Shown in pieces: positions 367 through 56,193 of a stretch of DNA of 64,000 bases (positions are counted from its first letter, which is position 1; the number at the start of each line of letters is the position of its first letter). The DNA is from a virus (taxonomy: Duplodnaviria; Heunggongvirae; Uroviricota; Caudoviricetes), in the IMG/VR virus record IMGVR_UViG_3300014208_000025, positions 52,967-116,966 of that record; one strand, 5' to 3'. The notes below the pieces were generated by a model. The model worked only from the letters and a program-made list of their open reading frames with translations, was not told the DNA's origin and ran no database searches. The position numbers were made by a program, and so were the translations under genes.

Positions 367-1049
367 AATTGTCTTATTTAATCACATGTAGCACCGAAAC
401 TAATACATTAGGAAATTTGATAAAACGAATCGGTTATTATGTCCACGGAACAATTGATGAAATCGTCATTCTTTTTGATACAAATGCCAATGAAGAAACG
501 AAGTTAGGAGTGAATATTTATAAAAATGAAAATCCCATAAATATTCATTTAGAAACACATTCGTTGAATAACGATTACGGAGCTCATAAAAATTTTGGTA
601 ACGAACAATGTTCAGGAGATTGGATTTTTCAATGTGACGGAGACGAATTGCCATCAATTGGATTGTTAGAAAACTTAAAAACTGTTATCCAATCAAATCC
701 TGATGTTGAATTGGTTTTTGTTCCACGAATCAACGACTTTCGGGGTGTGACACCTGAACATGCTAAACAATGGGGGTGGAGATTGACGCCTTCACCAAGT
801 TATGAAAATCGTTTAGTGGTAAATTGGCCAGACTATCAAGGTCGTATTTACAAACGTGATACTACACGAATCAAATGGGATAGGAAACTACATGAAAAAA
901 TCGTGGGTCACAAACAATATAGCTTTTTACCCGCTGAAGAAGAGTGGGCTTTGTATCACGACAAGACAATTGAAACCCAGATTAAAACCAACTTGAGATA
1001 CAATCAGGTTTTTACCGAAGCTGATAACAAAGGGCATACGGTCACATAA
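363..1049 (+). CDS. GT2-family glycosyltransferase
   Basis: N-terminal MKLSYLITC strand, HKNFGNEQCSGDWIFQCDGDE (DxD-type), WPDYQGRIYK. Confidence 0.85.
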   Translation: MKLSYLITCSTETNTLGNLIKRIGYYVHGTIDEIVILFDTNANEETKLGVNIYKNENPINIHLETHSLNNDYGAHKNFGNEQCSGDWIFQCDGDELPSIGLLENLKTVIQSNPDVELVFVPRINDFRGVTPEHAKQWGWRLTPSPSYENRLVVNWPDYQGRIYKRDTTRIKWDRKLHEKIVGHKQYSFLPAEEEWALYHDKTIETQIKTNLRYNQVFTEADNKGHTVT

Positions 1050-16083: not shown

Positions 16084-18363
16084 TCATTTATCATCTAAAA
16101 ATCTTTGATTTAGTGTTTTCGCTAATGCCGTAATATCTACGGGGTCAATAAATACGGAATCCCGTCCATACATCATTTCAAATTGACGACGTAAAGTATC
16201 CTTACGACTTAATGATGTTGGATTGAGATAACCGCTATTAAACCACATGTCCATCATCGTTTGATTTGAATTGATGAAATAACTGAGAATTTTTACCCCT
16301 TGAGCACGAATCTTTTCCACTTGTCGTTTCGTATGAGCAACCGCAACGGCGTCGGTGTAATTAAAGCCCGACCGATATTTGGGATTACCTGAACGCAACA
16401 TGTAATAAGGTTCTCCATCTGAAATGTTTACAAAATAATGGTCCTGTTCATCGGTTTTCTTACCTACGATAAAGTTATCCATGATGGATTCAAATGCCAA
16501 ACCTTCGGGAGTGCAACCAGAAGGTGTCAAAAAAGGAAACAACTGACGCACTTTACTGATTTTGTCCTTGGTGGAGTCATAAGCCAACACCACATACGGC
16601 AGTTCCGTTCCATCCGATAATCTGTGGGTGCAACGGAAGGATACCGACACCATCAAATTGTCAACCATTGAAGCGGCGACACAAATAGCGGTTAAACATG
16701 TCATCGTAGGATACCATTTGTCAGGAGAATTCATAGACGTGCTCGCATCCACCGAAATGTGTAGTCTAGCCTTGTTGTATTTGTGAGTCACCGTGCGATT
16801 GAAGATGTCTTCCATTCCGGCTCCGATACCAGCCAACAAACGACGTTCAATCTTACCTGAATGTTTTCGGATATACTTGGTGATGTTGACTTCACCACGG
16901 ATTTGTAGTTTCTTGCCGAGTAAGCGACCCAAAGCGACCCCTTTACAGACGGCAACATCGTTATCATCAGGAGCCTTGAATTCGTTTCCGGGTGCCTTTT
17001 CTACTGCGACCATTGGAAACACTGAGCGGCCTGACTCAATCAGTTCACGGGTCAATTTTTGAACCACGATACAATCCACAGCGGGTTGAGAAAAGTTTCC
17101 ACCACCAGCTTTTGGAATGCTTTTGCCCGTTGGTACAAGAATGATACCATTCTTTTCAATAACATCCAACATTGACTTTTCCGCCTTGGAAACGTGTTCC
17201 TTGATGGCTCGGTAGTCATGTTTCAACATGTCTTGTTGTTTTTTGAAATCCTTTTTGATGTCTTCAATCTGTTTCTTTGACAAATCAGAAATGTCACCGG
17301 GAGAATCAGGGTCAATATCTTCAAATTCATCTTCGTCGTCATCAATTGGCTTGCCCGCCTTCTTCATTTCCTTGGCTACTGCTTTGTTGATAACGACATC
17401 TACGTCGGCAGGGTCATCCCCGTTCGGTTCGTCTTCCTTTGGGTTTTCTGATTTTCCGTCTCCACCTTTTTCATTGGATGATTTACCATCTTTTTTGTCC
17501 GATGGTTTGCCTGTCATTTCAAAATGTTTTTCAAAAATGTCGTGAATTCTTTTGAGTGTTCCATCATTCTTCTGTTTTTTGAGTTTCCCAAGGCTCAATA
17601 TGATGACTTCGGCAATCTTGTAAGCTAGATTCAATCGTTCACGAGTCTTGGTAAGACGGAGGATGTTCGTCATATCCAATGTTTCGGCAATCTGCCGCAA
17701 CGCTGGAAGAGCATCCAAAACGGTTTCGGCATTGGTCAGATTGATGACACGATATTCGTAGGAACGCAGATTAGGAATCCGAAATGCCTTGGATTTCAAC
17801 GACTTGGAAATGGCTTCACTATTCCACATCTTCTTATACATCGCACTGTAATAACCACGGTAGCCGGGTGCTTCCTTGAAGATGTAGGTATCAATGTAAC
17901 GGTCTTCCACATAGTTGAACAACCATTTACAGAGATAGGCTAGTTGGTCAGTGGTGATGTTTTTCTTCTTGGCGGCGTCACGTAACGATGATGGAATGGG
18001 AAGCGGGGTGCGAATGAAAGCTGCTTTAACAACCTTGAAATCGCTCAACAGAATGTGTGCTCCTTCGTGTAGAGCAATACCAACCGACCAATCGAAATCG
18101 GTTTTTCGTCTAACCGAAGACGACAACCAAACCGCGTCACCATCGGTGAAGTTCATCATGTCCCGCCCATCATCAGAAAAATGAACGGCGATGTTTTTGT
18201 TGGTAAGAATACAAACGTAGTTTGAAATGACCCTGCGAAAGTTGGCCAATTGAATCAAGTCGGTAGTGAATTCCGCTGGCTTCTTTTTGTCAACGTGTCT
18301 CTCAACAAGTTCGTCAGTCAGCCAGAAGTCGGCAAAGGAAGATGTATTGGGGAGTTGACTCAT
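16084..18363 (-). CDS. vWA-domain protein with N-terminal HExxH metallopeptidase-like domain and acidic linker (MoxR partner)
   Basis: LHEGAHILL; NYVEDRYID; MIDAS ISVDASTSM; NISDGEP. Confidence 0.85.
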   Translation of the reverse strand: MSQLPNTSSFADFWLTDELVERHVDKKKPAEFTTDLIQLANFRRVISNYVCILTNKNIAVHFSDDGRDMMNFTDGDAVWLSSSVRRKTDFDWSVGIALHEGAHILLSDFKVVKAAFIRTPLPIPSSLRDAAKKKNITTDQLAYLCKWLFNYVEDRYIDTYIFKEAPGYRGYYSAMYKKMWNSEAISKSLKSKAFRIPNLRSYEYRVINLTNAETVLDALPALRQIAETLDMTNILRLTKTRERLNLAYKIAEVIILSLGKLKKQKNDGTLKRIHDIFEKHFEMTGKPSDKKDGKSSNEKGGDGKSENPKEDEPNGDDPADVDVVINKAVAKEMKKAGKPIDDDEDEFEDIDPDSPGDISDLSKKQIEDIKKDFKKQQDMLKHDYRAIKEHVSKAEKSMLDVIEKNGIILVPTGKSIPKAGGGNFSQPAVDCIVVQKLTRELIESGRSVFPMVAVEKAPGNEFKAPDDNDVAVCKGVALGRLLGKKLQIRGEVNITKYIRKHSGKIERRLLAGIGAGMEDIFNRTVTHKYNKARLHISVDASTSMNSPDKWYPTMTCLTAICVAASMVDNLMVSVSFRCTHRLSDGTELPYVVLAYDSTKDKISKVRQLFPFLTPSGCTPEGLAFESIMDNFIVGKKTDEQDHYFVNISDGEPYYMLRSGNPKYRSGFNYTDAVAVAHTKRQVEKIRAQGVKILSYFINSNQTMMDMWFNSGYLNPTSLSRKDTLRRQFEMMYGRDSVFIDPVDITALAKTLNQRFLDDK

Positions 18364-18548
18364 ACAGATTTAATAGCATAATTTCCAATTTTACTCCACC
18401 AATATTTTTTACAACAATACCAACAAGAGTCAACAACCATAAAATAATGGTTAAATCTTTCAATGTAACTTTTTGGATACTTTATTTGGGTATTCGCTCC
18501 ACAAAACGGACATGTGGATTCAAATGTGATTTGATGTTCTTTACTCAT
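18360..18548 (-). CDS. Small zinc-finger-like protein
   Basis: CPFC and CWYC; coupled overlaps on both sides. Confidence 0.5.
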   Translation of the reverse strand: MSKEHQITFESTCPFCGANTQIKYPKSYIERFNHYFMVVDSCWYCCKKYWWSKIGNYAIKSV

Positions 18549-19324
18549 GCAAAATTGACACGTTTTTTCTTCTCCGGGTCATTGATTGGTGACGCTACGT
18601 TAGCCGATCCAAAATCCAGATATTTTTGGATAATCTGTTTGGCATAGATACGTTCACTTTCGGCTCCTCCATCCTCACTATACAACGGATAGATAACCAT
18701 TTCGACAATTTCTTTCAAAGAAAACCCATCCAATACCAACTCTGCCATTTCGACTACGGTGCCAGTAGGAATGAAGTTCGTAATCCGAGCCTCTTCCATT
18801 TTGGATTGTTTCTTGGTATCATAAGAAATCTTGGTCAATATTTTGAAATCATCCACTTGTGATGTTGACGCCGATGGAAACAACGTCGTCAACAAACCTA
18901 ACTCTTGGTCGGCATCTAACACTTTCATTTCCACGATAACGGGGAAACGTGAAGTCAAAGCCTTATCCATGACTCGTGTGGCAGTGTATTCATTACCGAC
19001 GTTTGCCGTAGCAATAAACGTTACTCCAGATGATACATGAATAACCGAGGAATTTTCCGATTCATCTAATCTTAATGTTCTTTGAGTAGGGTCGATAACT
19101 GGCATCAGGATATTCATTCCGTCATGTGATAGTCTTGATAGTTCATCCAATAGAATTATAGAATTCGGAGTTTCTATAGCTTTTACAAACTCAGATTTAT
19201 TAAACCAAGTTCCTTTATCTTTTGAAAAAAATGTATTTCCTATAAATAATGCTCGAGCGTCTTGTGAGCTTCCACAGTTAAATTTGAATAATCTATTTTC
19301 TTTATATGTTACTTTATATTTCAT
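18545..19324 (-). CDS. MoxR/CobS-like AAA+ ATPase, C-terminal fragment (Walker B, sensor 1, Arg finger)
   Basis: FNCGSSQDARALFIG, IILLDELSR, IATANVG, LTSRF; no Walker A; ATG overlaps endonuclease stop. Confidence 0.85.
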   Translation of the reverse strand: MKYKVTYKENRLFKFNCGSSQDARALFIGNTFFSKDKGTWFNKSEFVKAIETPNSIILLDELSRLSHDGMNILMPVIDPTQRTLRLDESENSSVIHVSSGVTFIATANVGNEYTATRVMDKALTSRFPVIVEMKVLDADQELGLLTTLFPSASTSQVDDFKILTKISYDTKKQSKMEEARITNFIPTGTVVEMAELVLDGFSLKEIVEMVIYPLYSEDGGAESERIYAKQIIQKYLDFGSANVASPINDPEKKKRVNFA

Positions 19325-20073
19325 TTTGGTATTATTTTTATAAATGAATATTCCCCTTTTAGTGCTCTTTTCCAACTGATTCTTTTATTTTCGATTCCCC
19401 GAACCCTTCCCTGGGGAATTTTACTGTTGTAATTTTTTATAAATGATAAAAATTCATATCTATTAAAAAATTCATGAAAATTTCCATTCAAAGTCATTTC
19501 TATCATTATTGTATCCCATCGTTTTTTATGACTGACTCTCATTTTTTCTTTAGCTTCAACAGATGGTAAAATTCCTAAATGACTAATTCTTAATTTTTCT
19601 TTGGTTTCATCCGACAGATGTTTCCCTTTTTGATATCTACTTACCATTTTTCTAAATTCAACACTTCTAACTTTTCCATACATCGGATTATTTTTTCCGC
19701 TGTTTTGTTTGCTAAGGCGCAACTTCTCTTTTGGAGAGCTTAATGTTTTTTTAAGAGATTCACTTAATCTTTTTTTGTATTCGGGATCATCATAACTGCG
19801 GTGGTTATTCGAAGATGTTTCTCTGACTAAATTATAACAGTTTTTGTTTTTTATAGCATCTAATGTGTCAAGCCACCACAACTCTTTATTTTTCAACTCT
19901 GTTTCCGATTGGCATTCTTCCAATATTTCTTTTTTGAAATTTTGTCTTCCATATTTTTTAATGGCACAACGCAATGCCATACCCGACCCCAAATATGATT
20001 TTGTGTAAGTTTGTTGTTTTCCAATATAGTATTTTCCATTTATTAAGTTAGTTGTTTTGTATATTACCATCAT
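19321..20073 (-). CDS. GIY-YIG homing endonuclease with NUMOD3 repeats
   Basis: VIYKTTNLINGKYYIGK...YLGSG; NNPMYGK and HLSDETKEKL repeats. Confidence 0.9.
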   Translation of the reverse strand: MMVIYKTTNLINGKYYIGKQQTYTKSYLGSGMALRCAIKKYGRQNFKKEILEECQSETELKNKELWWLDTLDAIKNKNCYNLVRETSSNNHRSYDDPEYKKRLSESLKKTLSSPKEKLRLSKQNSGKNNPMYGKVRSVEFRKMVSRYQKGKHLSDETKEKLRISHLGILPSVEAKEKMRVSHKKRWDTIMIEMTLNGNFHEFFNRYEFLSFIKNYNSKIPQGRVRGIENKRISWKRALKGEYSFIKIIPK

Positions 20074-20112
20074 ATCAATCCTTTCTACGACAGTAATAAA
20101 TATATTCCAAGA

Positions 20113-20403
20113 TTACTTTTCATCTGAAAATTCCTCTACTTTCAGTATTTTTATTGAGGGGTTTAATTTTAACTCAGAAAGAGTTATATCTGAAACAACT
20201 TCGGTTTTTGTTTCGGCATAAGCCTCGGCAACCGATTGAGCCGCTTTGGTCTTTCCACTACGGGTTGGCCCGACGAGGATGATGTTTTTCCCCCGTAAAA
20301 CAGCCCGACACAAATACTTCCACGACAAACCATCAATAATCAAGTCGGTGGGTTTGAGAGTATCGCAAGTCTTTAACGTTTTTGTGAGTTCTTCGATTTC
20401 CAT
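20113..20403 (-). CDS. MoxR/CobS-like AAA+ ATPase, N-terminal fragment (Walker A)
   Basis: LRGKNIILVGPTRSGKT; ends EEFSDEK*. Confidence 0.8.
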   Translation of the reverse strand: MEIEELTKTLKTCDTLKPTDLIIDGLSWKYLCRAVLRGKNIILVGPTRSGKTKAAQSVAEAYAETKTEVVSDITLSELKLNPSIKILKVEEFSDEK

Positions 20404-20410
20404 TGTGGAC

Positions 20411-20438
20411 ATTTTACCACAACAATATAGAAAGTCAA
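20411..20438 (-). promoter_or_regulatory. sigma70-like promoter, apparently leaderless
   Basis: TTGACT-N16-TAAAAT-N7-ATG(20403). Confidence 0.65.
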
Positions 20439-22009: not shown

Positions 22010-22789
22010 CTAACTAAAAAAGGAATTTTCGGTGGGGTTTTCTACCACTATCTCTTGGATGTTGTCCGCGTAAGTAGTATTCTTGGGATAAGGTTGAAAA
22101 GGGTGTTTAAGATTGGCTAGAATGCGTTTCTTTTCAATTTTGTTACCCAGCAGACACACATACCGATGTTTGGTGGATTCTTTCTTACGCCAGAAAGTGT
22201 GACCGATGCGTTTTTTCAAATGCTCAATGTTGCAGGAATTGTAGGTGGAAGTGACCGTTCGGGAGTGAATCCACTTGTAAGGCGGCCCAACCAACGAGAT
22301 TGAAAAGTTGGGCATCAAAGCCAGTGACGAGTTGCCTTGGTAATGAAACCCACAGGCTTGATAAATCGTGCCGTGATGACCATACTCGTTGTCGGCATAG
22401 GTAATAACGGCTTTGATGTGAGGAAATTTCTTGCGGATAAAGGCGAGAGCTTTGGTGAGACAATAACTTTCAATATTACTGCCGTAGCCGTCGTGGATAA
22501 ACAGGCGAGTCAGTTCAAATACTTCATCAACCTTTATCAGTTCAGAAACGGATTCAGCGGCAGACCGCCCAACAGGTTGACCGAAAACCATACAACCGAT
22601 GTATTTTTCTTCTTTGGCGTCAACAAATACACAATCAACATCGGTGACAAAGAAAATTCCGTAGGCAACTTGACACAAAGACCACTTGTGAGAATAGTGA
22701 TTCTTCACAATCATGTCTTCTGCAAGGCTTTTTTCTACTTCACGGACAACAATCTTTGTGGGGTTGAAAAACTCTTTTTCTACGGACAT
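22010..22789 (-). CDS. Mom-like adenine-modification acetyltransferase (GNAT fold)
   Basis: NHYSH, GCMVFG, ELTRL, NIESY, VITYAD...GHHGTIYQACGFHYQG. Confidence 0.8.
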   Translation of the reverse strand: MSVEKEFFNPTKIVVREVEKSLAEDMIVKNHYSHKWSLCQVAYGIFFVTDVDCVFVDAKEEKYIGCMVFGQPVGRSAAESVSELIKVDEVFELTRLFIHDGYGSNIESYCLTKALAFIRKKFPHIKAVITYADNEYGHHGTIYQACGFHYQGNSSLALMPNFSISLVGPPYKWIHSRTVTSTYNSCNIEHLKKRIGHTFWRKKESTKHRYVCLLGNKIEKKRILANLKHPFQPYPKNTTYADNIQEIVVENPTENSFFS

Positions 22790-36564: not shown

Positions 36565-36593
36565 AGTAATAAATATATTTCAAAATCCCAAAA

Positions 36594-49679: not shown

Positions 49680-50428
49680 AAAATTTCCTTTTTCAATTTT
49701 CTTAATACCCAAGATTTTTTAATATTATCTCTATGTTTTTGCCTATTTTCTTCACTCATATTCTTATATCCTTCACTAACCGAACCTCCATGTAATTTTT
49801 TTACTACATCATTTTCGTAAAATTTTTTCATTGATTGACTTTTTTTCTTTTTACTTTCATCCGATTGATGCGTTCCTTGTAAATGATTATTTCCTTTATG
49901 AGAGTCACTCATTTTTCTTTTTGTTTCTTCGGTATGTTTTTTTCCAAACATGGGATGATTTTCTCCCTGTTTTATCATACTTAATTTTTTTCTAGTTTCT
50001 ATTGATAATGTTTTTCCAAACATAGGATGATTAGACCCACTATTTATATCGCTTAACAATTTTTTTGTTTCTTTACTACGAATCTTTCCTCTATTGCCAT
50101 CACCTATTCTTTTTCTGGTTTCTGAATTCATTTCTATTTTACCAGCAACCAATGACAAATTATACAACTTTTCCGATTTCTTAAAATCATCAATGTATTT
50201 TTGTTCGGTGGTTAACAAATCAGATTCATTACAAACTTCAACGATTGAAAAGATAAAACTCTTTTCTCCATGTTTGTTCCACGACCGTTGAAGATAACAG
50301 TTGTCATGAGTATTATGTCTTAGTCTTTTCTTATGGTCTATCCATCTCCGTTTAATGTTGTTACTGCTACCAAAATAATGTTTTCCATTAACCACGTTTG
50401 TTATTTCATAAACTCCTATGATTTTCAT
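49676..50428 (-). CDS. GIY-YIG homing endonuclease with NUMOD3 repeats
   Basis: GVYEITNVVNGKHYFGSS; HPMFGK repeats. Confidence 0.9.
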   Translation of the reverse strand: MKIIGVYEITNVVNGKHYFGSSNNIKRRWIDHKKRLRHNTHDNCYLQRSWNKHGEKSFIFSIVEVCNESDLLTTEQKYIDDFKKSEKLYNLSLVAGKIEMNSETRKRIGDGNRGKIRSKETKKLLSDINSGSNHPMFGKTLSIETRKKLSMIKQGENHPMFGKKHTEETKRKMSDSHKGNNHLQGTHQSDESKKKKSQSMKKFYENDVVKKLHGGSVSEGYKNMSEENRQKHRDNIKKSWVLRKLKKEIL

Positions 50429-52909: not shown

Positions 52910-52977
52910 AAAATTATCCTTTTTGAATTGATTATGATGTGTGTCATCGTATAATAACTATTTCAAAAAATAAAAAA

Positions 52978-56115: not shown

Positions 56116-56193
56116 CTGTTAATACATATATTCCAAAAGTGAAAAGAGTATAACATATTTGGAATTATTTTCAAGTTATTATATTGTCACCAT

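Follow-up and report, generated by a model that had tools for sequence, protein, structure and literature searches.

A viral MoxR-type AAA+ ATPase gene in two pieces, with a free-standing GIY-YIG endonuclease gene at the break and a small conserved insert divided between the two fragments

In the 279-kb viral record IMGVR_UViG_3300014208_000025 (Caudoviricetes), from a jumbo phage, we analysed a stretch of 64,000 nt, positions 52,967 to 116,966 of the record (hereafter the window), in which the gene for an AAA+ ATPase of the MoxR group is divided into two open reading frames (ORFs). The gene is contiguous in relatives and is split here by a free-standing endonuclease gene without any splicing element; all features of the split locus lie on the minus strand. 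We consider it likely that this ATPase is of the genes-in-pieces type described for NrdA of phage Aeh1, that is, made as two separate polypeptides, with the endonuclease gene placed in the loop that leads from helix a1 to strand b2, without splicing and with a small module at the break. Two extra peptides found there, a tail on the N-terminal fragment (N-fragment) and a head on the C-terminal fragment (C-fragment), are probably the two halves of one small conserved insert, which would clip the ATPase fragments together.

The split protein is a NorQ/CbbQ-class MoxR AAA+ ATPase endowed with Walker A, Walker B, sensor 1 and arginine finger. The Pfam profile AAA_5 (cutoff 22) was matched with 31.4 bits by the C-fragment and with 60.9 bits by an intact homolog, P0060. 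In addition, a foldseek search carried out with the AlphaFold2 model of a naturally fused homolog, P0044, and not of the window's own protein, returned NorQ and CbbQ at the top (E 4e-15, template modelling score 0.81-0.84 by target length). Specifically, Walker A, Walker B (ILLDE), sensor 1 (T-A-N) and R126 are all invariant in the split forms, with T106, A107, N108 and R126 unchanged in 14/14 C-fragments. An earlier inspection of the letters alone (the sequence-only reading) had placed Walker A and Walker B in separate ORFs with the endonuclease gene between them, and our ORF and motif scans agree; position 20403, where that reading let the N-fragment begin, is the second in-frame ATG of the N-fragment ORF. 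Residues 23-55 of the N-fragment are 91-100% identical to the intact allele P0060, and the ATPase is present in one copy in the 279-kb genome.

When the fragments are aligned with 158 uninterrupted homologs, the latter show a loop of 3-5 residues from helix a1 to strand b2, in line with the short loop that the sequence-only reading expected for MoxR proteins. None of these 158 proteins has anything that aligns with the final 34 residues of the N-fragment or with the opening 10-13 residues of the C-fragment, which bears out the gains of about 34 and about 10 residues claimed previously. The overlap between the C-fragment start and the endonuclease stop is also real, the ATG and the TGA sharing 4 nt (ATGA at 19321-19324). 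The string ATGAAA...AAGTAA, to which the same reading drew attention, does occur at both junctions; its meaning as an element repeat did not stand. It is found at both because the two junctions encode 'DEK-stop' and 'MKYKV', and is a by-product of coding: the string lies in different frames at the two junctions and is missing where the tails of relatives end differently, so that a target duplication or element repeat was rejected. A duplication of the end of helix a1 on both fragments, suggested by tblastn overlaps, was likewise dropped, the multiple alignment placing the head inside the insert.

With regard to splicing, no Rfam intron family was found up to E 10 between positions 18000 and 21000, and a group I intron would have to fit into an upstream spacer of 39 nt and a downstream overlap of 4 nt. 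Hint and intein families were detected neither in the two fragments nor in the fused relative (E up to 0.01-1); the insert counts about 44 residues, shows no conserved nucleophile at its junctions and is kept in a natural fused protein. Moreover, in split relatives that have no endonuclease the N- and C-genes are separated by a stop codon, 22-67 nt and a new ATG, and because these spacers measure only 22-67 nt we regard the two genes as truly separate. The locus is neither a fractured gene nor a group I intron-encoded endonuclease, in agreement with the sequence-only reading, which saw no intein termini and no room for a group I core.

To characterise the extra peptides, 5.8 billion proteins were searched with four N-fragments, which led to about 38 distinct proteins of 91-108 residues, and the conservation of the tail was computed on an alignment of 35 N-fragments, 39-87% identical to that of the window. 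In these 35 sequences the commonest residue at a position has an average frequency of 0.62 across the tail vs 0.73 across the N-core, and four tail positions (L78, L81, I89 and E93) reach a frequency of at least 0.91. At the four loci with DNA, the proportion of nonsynonymous differences (pN) in the tail is 0.14-0.42 while that of synonymous differences (pS) is 0.65-0.82, synonymous sites being saturated; this pattern indicates that the tail is under purifying selection. A head of the KYKVTYK type starts 14/14 C-fragments. The mean net charge is -3.7 for the tails and +4.6 for the heads. The first tail residue is Ser or Ala and unconserved, and the residue following the head is Leu, Phe or Pro. 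Conservation in at least 35 lineages, and apparent purifying selection on the tail, lead us to conclude that the peptides are not random; randomness was among the conditions under which the sequence-only reading was to be given up. A tail-only profile run against 1.84 billion representatives recovered N-fragments of this family only, plus a few repetitive or very short proteins; no sign of the same peptides in other split genes was obtained with this profile, whose 37 positions give it a short reach.

The fused homolog P0044 (locus L171) is a natural ATPase of 347 residues in which tail and head are contiguous and in frame. Its AlphaFold2 model, computed from an alignment of 101 rows, has a mean predicted local distance difference test score of 91, with values of 85-92 in the insert. 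There, the model shows a strand (63-69), a helix (72-80) and two further strands (84-88 and 93-99), after which b2 follows at 103-107. This predicted strand-helix-strand plus strand has the beta-alpha-beta + beta topology that had been guessed for the two peptides, and the split forms are interrupted at a point that corresponds to the turn joining the strands at 84-88 and 93-99.

All together, these data suggest the following mechanism. The N-fragment would contribute b1, Walker A and a1, and the C-fragment would contribute b2-b5 (with Walker B, sensor 1 and the arginine finger) and the lid domain. The acidic 34-residue tail (strand-helix-strand) and the basic head of about 11 residues (strand) would together make a module of about 44 residues. 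The head strand would pair with the tail, helped by the opposite charge, and this pairing would hold the fragments, with b1 and the P-loop slotting into the C-fragment sheet to build a composite ATP site. We infer, on this basis, that the fragments associate and that the complex has ATPase activity. As to the origin of the locus, the nuclease would cut intact alleles, and repair would copy the tail, the nuclease gene, the head and about 300 bp downstream. The purifying selection acting on the tail, its retention after loss of the endonuclease and the predicted fold would provide indirect support for a role of the tail in assembly.

The mobility of the insert was addressed by comparing the window with L169, the intact tail-less allele that encodes P0060. 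The flanks are 76-79% identical in DNA, and between them 1033 bp of the window (20228-19196) replace 122 bp. Identity to L169 is 76-85% in the N-core up to about codon 55 and then falls; it is 57-67% over C-fragment residues 12-100 and about 90% from codon 100 on. Both breakpoints recur in the independent pair L087/L185: in the two pairs, identity to the intact allele drops at N-codon 55-60 and climbs from about 60% to about 90% near C-codon 100. Consistently, C-fragment residues 1-100 are 85-100% identical to the split locus L004 and 41-75% to P0060, while for residues 101-259 the relation reverses (75-100% to P0060, 30-70% to L004). A tract of low GC content at about 19130-20200 (25-33% vs 40-47% outside) coincides with the replaced portion.

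By comparing separately a cassette-type part of the ATPase gene, here called segment 2, and the remaining backbone, the mosaic nature of the split genes becomes evident. In the window, the backbone is 92% identical to the intact P0060 and segment 2 only 65%; segment 2 is 90% identical to that of L004, whose backbone stands at 62%. Comparable values (backbone, segment 2) were obtained for L004/P0055 (97%, 67%), L087/P0171 (97%, 69%), L167/P0148 (92%, 68%) and L176/P0130 (92%, 69%). In all five split genes, identity to the intact allele is thus 92-97% for the backbone and 65-69% for segment 2, which groups with other split genes. On the backbone tree, the 13 split or fused rows require 13 state changes, and the approximately unbiased (AU) test rejected both a single clade of split forms (log-likelihood difference 1111, p 7e-4) and one of all 13 forms (1399, p 6e-6). 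On segment 2, one clade of the ten type-1 cassettes was not rejected (p 0.51).

A presence/absence polymorphism at one site, with co-conversion of the flanks, is seen when L169 and L185 are set against the filled alleles. As far as sequence comparison goes, the data show that the tail, the spacer, the endonuclease, the head and about 100 downstream codons form one cassette, and that, on repeated occasions, different tail-less intact alleles have received a copy of it by homing with co-conversion, each import appearing both to split the gene and to deliver the module. Repeated homing would be the simplest reading of this pattern. A further step would be to regard the endonuclease and the 44-residue module as a single co-evolved mobile 'split-and-staple' cassette, which homes into a catalytic core without intron or intein and turns an intact gene into a working two-piece gene; we see about equal grounds for accepting and for doubting this broader proposal. 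If it is true, the staple persists after the death of the endonuclease and may be re-fused, and through endonuclease traffic genes would be stably divided and proteins would gain new insert domains.

The endonuclease ORF matches PHROG 314, 'homing endonuclease' (E 1.9e-31), and contains NUMOD3 (34.3 bits, cutoff 20.4). Its scores with the Pfam profiles GIY-YIG (17.7 vs 22.6) and SegE (22.8 vs 25) are below cutoff; the GIY and YIG motifs are recognisable near the N-terminus. Across the four loci compared, the ratio of nonsynonymous to synonymous rates (omega) is about 0.12-0.21. An intact endonuclease of about 250 residues occupies the split in the window and in L004, L005, L087, L167, L175 and L176. 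In L174 the same gap harbours another GIY-YIG gene, of 204 residues and 37% identical to the window's endonuclease. In L177 (2699-3470) the catalytic GIY-YIG domain is deleted, so that a short N-terminal remnant is followed by ORFs of 174 and 55 residues, flanked by intact ATPase fragments, an arrangement that presents itself as a snapshot of endonuclease decay. Lastly, split and module occur without endonuclease in L164/L165, L166 and L172, where the inter-gene spacers are 22, 42 or 67 nt. The module is retained in every state, with the endonuclease intact, degenerate or absent, or with the halves fused, and from these comparisons split and module are seen to outlast the endonuclease. For the fused P0044, segment 2 is 93% identical to the endonuclease-bearing L175 and the backbone 88% identical to an intact allele, which favours, for this single contig, a re-fusion after nuclease loss.

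Some features of the intergenic regions are worth reporting here. A spacer motif, GTTGGAATATAYTTAT, is kept right after the N-fragment stop in the 8 loci with this endonuclease, including the degenerate L177, and is partial in L174. Allowing up to 2 mismatches, the window contains 3 copies vs 0.2 expected (20096-20111, 36569-36584 and 56122-56137), all on the minus strand and each between minus-strand genes; the motif may be a phage promoter or control element. In L087 (3243-3473), an extra ORF of 76 residues lies between the endonuclease gene and the C-fragment, whose start is 218 nt past the endonuclease stop, with no overlap. Six other, distant GIY-YIG/NUMOD3-like ORFs are present in the 279-kb genome (E 1.7e-11 to 5e-4), and endonuclease genes thus seem to have colonised this phage heavily.

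Several points speak against a simple clip made of tail and head. The tails of Aeh1 are dispensable for fragment association and needed for a higher-order assembly step (PMC3045599); by analogy, the module described here could act at a hexamer or partner interface. In the alignment given to AlphaFold2, the N- and C-fragments were separate rows, and the tail-head pairing is a one-sequence network prediction and not covariation. When the N-fragment was modelled alone, the tail formed helices only. The fused form is known from one 5-kb contig. As for mobility, the groups submitted to the AU test were named after the identities had been seen, with an effect that is nevertheless very large. A complex predicted from three chains, namely the C-fragment, residues 1-62 of the N-fragment and, perhaps a poor design, the detached tail (63-99), scored 0.02 (mark 0.32), and was used neither way.

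A fairly unlikely alternative is that the split came first: an ancestral ATPase would already have had the 44-residue insert and two genes, the GIY-YIG gene would have settled in the gap later, in the usual manner of free-standing endonucleases, and the tails would be native. Split loci without any endonuclease do exist, segment 2 of L172 groups with its own backbone, and two different GIY-YIG genes, 37% identical, sit in the same gap. A precedent is offered by gene 43 of phage 25 vs 44RR (PMC2988022). The evidence from L164 cuts both ways. Its 22-nt spacer resembles a junction of GGTTG, the 5 nt that open the conserved spacer, with the 3'-terminal 17 nt of the nuclease gene, and is readable as an empty landing site or as a deletion scar; its backbone is near intact tail-less alleles (N-core tree distance 0.06), yet its segment 2 is of the cassette type, which fits import followed by loss. 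The same alternative is further weakened by L177, where endonuclease loss would be in progress, and by the finding that no intact homolog has the insert save the cassette-type P0044. In any case it concerns the origin only: the window locus would still be an import into a P0060-like backbone, and the function of the module would be unchanged.

A distinctly unlikely alternative holds that selection keeps the module for something other than joining, perhaps contact with a neighbouring hexamer subunit or with the large partner encoded downstream, much as the Aeh1 tails serve dimerisation and not fragment pairing, and that the fragments associate via the AAA+ core alone. The order of strands in the AAA+ sheet is 5-1-4-3-2, by which b1, from the N-fragment, necessarily comes to lie between C-fragment strands. 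Moreover, the module is retained in the fused P0044, where joining is needless, and a heterodimer still forms from tail-less Aeh1 fragments (PMC3045599). However, the module is confined to the split forms and one fused derivative (0/158 intact proteins), the break always falls inside it, the predicted fold pairs one strand from each fragment, and the two halves carry opposite charge. The joining role, in a two-polypeptide ATPase, stays the preferred reading.

It is very improbable that tail and head descend from a split intein that shrank and no longer splices, in other words that the locus is a 'fractured gene' without its former splicing chemistry. Mini-inteins need roughly 130 residues, against the approximately 44 of tail and head together. 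Neither a Hint or intein family (E up to 0.01-1) nor a conserved Cys, Ser or Thr at the junctions was found, and the predicted fold is made of one helix and three strands. Fractured genes do share the order N-piece, endonuclease, C-piece (PMC2677866), and a split-intein origin was raised by Crona et al. for the Aeh1 tails (PMC3045599). Finally, although many phage endonuclease genes sit in group I introns or inteins, a gene restored by RNA or protein splicing, or a locus that is a decaying pseudogene, is hardly credible in view of the empty Rfam search up to E 10, of the 22-67-nt spacers with stop and new ATG in endonuclease-free relatives, of purifying selection on both fragments and of catalytic motifs invariant in many lineages.

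The positions of the parts discussed above, together with the neighbouring partner gene and the further endonuclease-like ORFs, are reported in Table 1.

Table 1. Parts of the split ATPase locus and associated genes (window positions, unless G000:C1 is given; aa, amino acids)
Feature	Position	Strand	Description
N-fragment ORF	20113-20412	-	99 aa, ends in stop; Walker A GPTRSGKT
N-fragment core, residues 1-65	20218..20412	-	helix a0, strand b1, Walker A (GPTRSGKT), helix a1
N-fragment tail, residues 66-99 + stop	20113..20217	-	acidic; unmatched in intact homologs
Spacer, 39 nt	20074..20112	-	conserved GTTGGAATATAYTTAT-like motif at 20096-20111; AAAGGA ribosome-binding site before endonuclease ATG
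Endonuclease ORF, 250 aa, free-standing GIY-YIG/NUMOD3	19321..20073	-	Pfam and PHROG matches
C-fragment ORF	18545-19324	-	259 aa; Walker B ILLDE
C-fragment head, residues 1-11	19292..19324	-	basic, KYKVTYK-type strand
C-fragment residues 12-100	19025..19291	-	b2, Walker B ILLDE, to just before sensor 1; apparent donor-type, co-converted cassette part
C-fragment residues 101-259 + stop	18545..19024	-	sensor 1, arginine finger, lid domain; backbone part
Minimal cassette core (blastn-delimited)	19196..20228	-	replaces 122 bp of intact allele L169
Downstream partner gene, 759 aa	16084..18363	-	syntenic in all relatives; DxSxS motif like that of a metal-ion-dependent adhesion site (MIDAS-like)
Further GIY-YIG/NUMOD3-like ORFs	G000:C1 102735-103382 (= window 49769-50416), 214429-214770, 153486-153971, 147324-147536, 142199-142594, 534-752		

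Uninterrupted homologs of the ATPase, of 300-430 residues, are very common in viral contigs and metagenomes, and are followed by the same large gene. In the cultured cyanophage Microcystis phage Mel-JY01 (L001:3035-4717) the homolog has 560 residues owing to an N-terminal extension of about 250, which the window's family does not have; a marine subfamily (L062-L083, L172) carries a shorter N-terminal extension, of about 95 residues. A megablast search of the locus against phage records gave no match. A pattern scan of viral contigs with the N-fragment found no relatives, and the same scan with the C-fragment found them.

The 759-residue partner has no sequence match in Pfam, PHROG or PDB, and a VWA domain was not detected by sequence. 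On the basis of synteny and of the DxSxS-like motif, it is presumed to be a NorD/CbbO-like VWA protein. Its long middle part is acidic and of low complexity. Between the C-fragment and this gene lies an ORF of 62 residues (window 18360-18548, minus strand) with a CxxC...CxxCC spacing and a weak match to CpXC. This ORF has a low GC content (28-33%), is missing from the intact relative L169, whose ATPase and 759-aa-type genes overlap, and may be another small insertion. Upstream of the ATPase, at a distance of two or three genes, a Mom-like protein for DNA modification is encoded (Pfam Mom, E 1.5e-41; window 22010-22789, minus strand); a Mom-like gene is near the ATPase also in relatives (L086:87-893, L176:62-1974, L177:710-1486 and L185:522-1301), in a conserved neighbourhood.

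How the polypeptides of an endonuclease-split enzyme assemble is listed as an open structure-function question in a review of mobile elements of T4-type phages (PMC2988022). The ATPase family described here naturally displays all the states concerned: intact and tail-less, split with an intact, dead or missing endonuclease, and re-fused. Study of the family is helped by the small module, modelled with confidence, and by a simple enzyme assay. The tails appear to travel with the endonuclease as a unit into many backbones, which would support the idea that, next to introns and inteins, such tails are a third and general means of keeping a selfish nuclease gene harmless inside a coding region.

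Among known systems, the closest structures to the phage ATPase are those of the MoxR AAA+ systems NorQ/NorD and CbbQ/CbbO (PDB 9qh4, 9qh6 and 6l1q); in the phage, too, a large presumed partner gene lies downstream. Sequence identity is just 17-20%, and the cellular enzymes are single polypeptides. Two further phage cases resemble the locus in part. In T4, the topoisomerase locus gene 39/mobA/gene 60 (PMC2988022; PMC3045599) is likewise an enzyme contiguous in relatives and split by a free-standing endonuclease gene, with charged tail-like extensions on both products; it differs in the 50-nt translational bypass of gene 60 and in that no mobile tail-bearing cassette has been described from comparisons. 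In Aeromonas phage 25, gene 43A/seg/43B is to be compared with 44RR (PMC2988022): the split gene is found with and without endonuclease, and there is the same doubt whether the endonuclease caused the split. There, however, the enzyme is a DNA polymerase, the spacer of 44RR is untranslated, and no conserved tail module has been described. Fractured genes (Dassa et al. 2009, PMC2677866), mostly from phage metagenomes, have the same gene order and an endonuclease that brings its own control elements. Their flanking peptides, in contrast, are split-intein halves that ligate the exteins, whereas those of the ATPase have far too few residues and no intein motifs, and remain part of the mature protein, also when it is fused.

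The nearest parallel is nrdA-a/mobE/nrdA-b of Aeh1 (Friedrich et al. 2007; PMC3045599). In both cases a free-standing endonuclease gene splits an enzyme between adjacent strands of the catalytic core without splicing, the start of the downstream fragment overlaps the endonuclease gene, the insert is low in GC, and oppositely charged tails are present that are missing from contiguous homologs. Crona et al. (2011, PMC3045599) showed that Aeh1 NrdA depends for its activity on the mobE-derived tails. For these authors the tails are a molecular antidote that comes with the insertion; they remarked on the opposite charges, drew a parallel to the tails of T4 gp39 and gp60, proposed a general mechanism and predicted more overlooked cases (PMC3045599). 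The two systems differ in several respects. Aeh1 combines a ribonucleotide reductase with an HNH endonuclease, whereas here an AAA+ ATPase is combined with GIY-YIG, and the charge polarity is reversed, the N tail being acidic in the phage ATPase. The Aeh1 arrangement is found in a single genome, as a presumed one-off transposition, while the ATPase tails occur in at least 35 lineages, with the cassette in many backbones. In addition, the ATPase endonuclease is seen intact, degenerate and lost, and a fused ATPase form exists; experiment has shown the tails to be essential for Aeh1 only. In conclusion, the concept of insertion-derived tails was already published for Aeh1, and the ATPase locus adds another enzyme and another nuclease family. 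What is new over Aeh1, judging from the comparison of relatives, is the conservation across many lineages, the apparent co-mobility of tail and nuclease, the persistence of the tails after nuclease loss and the fused form.

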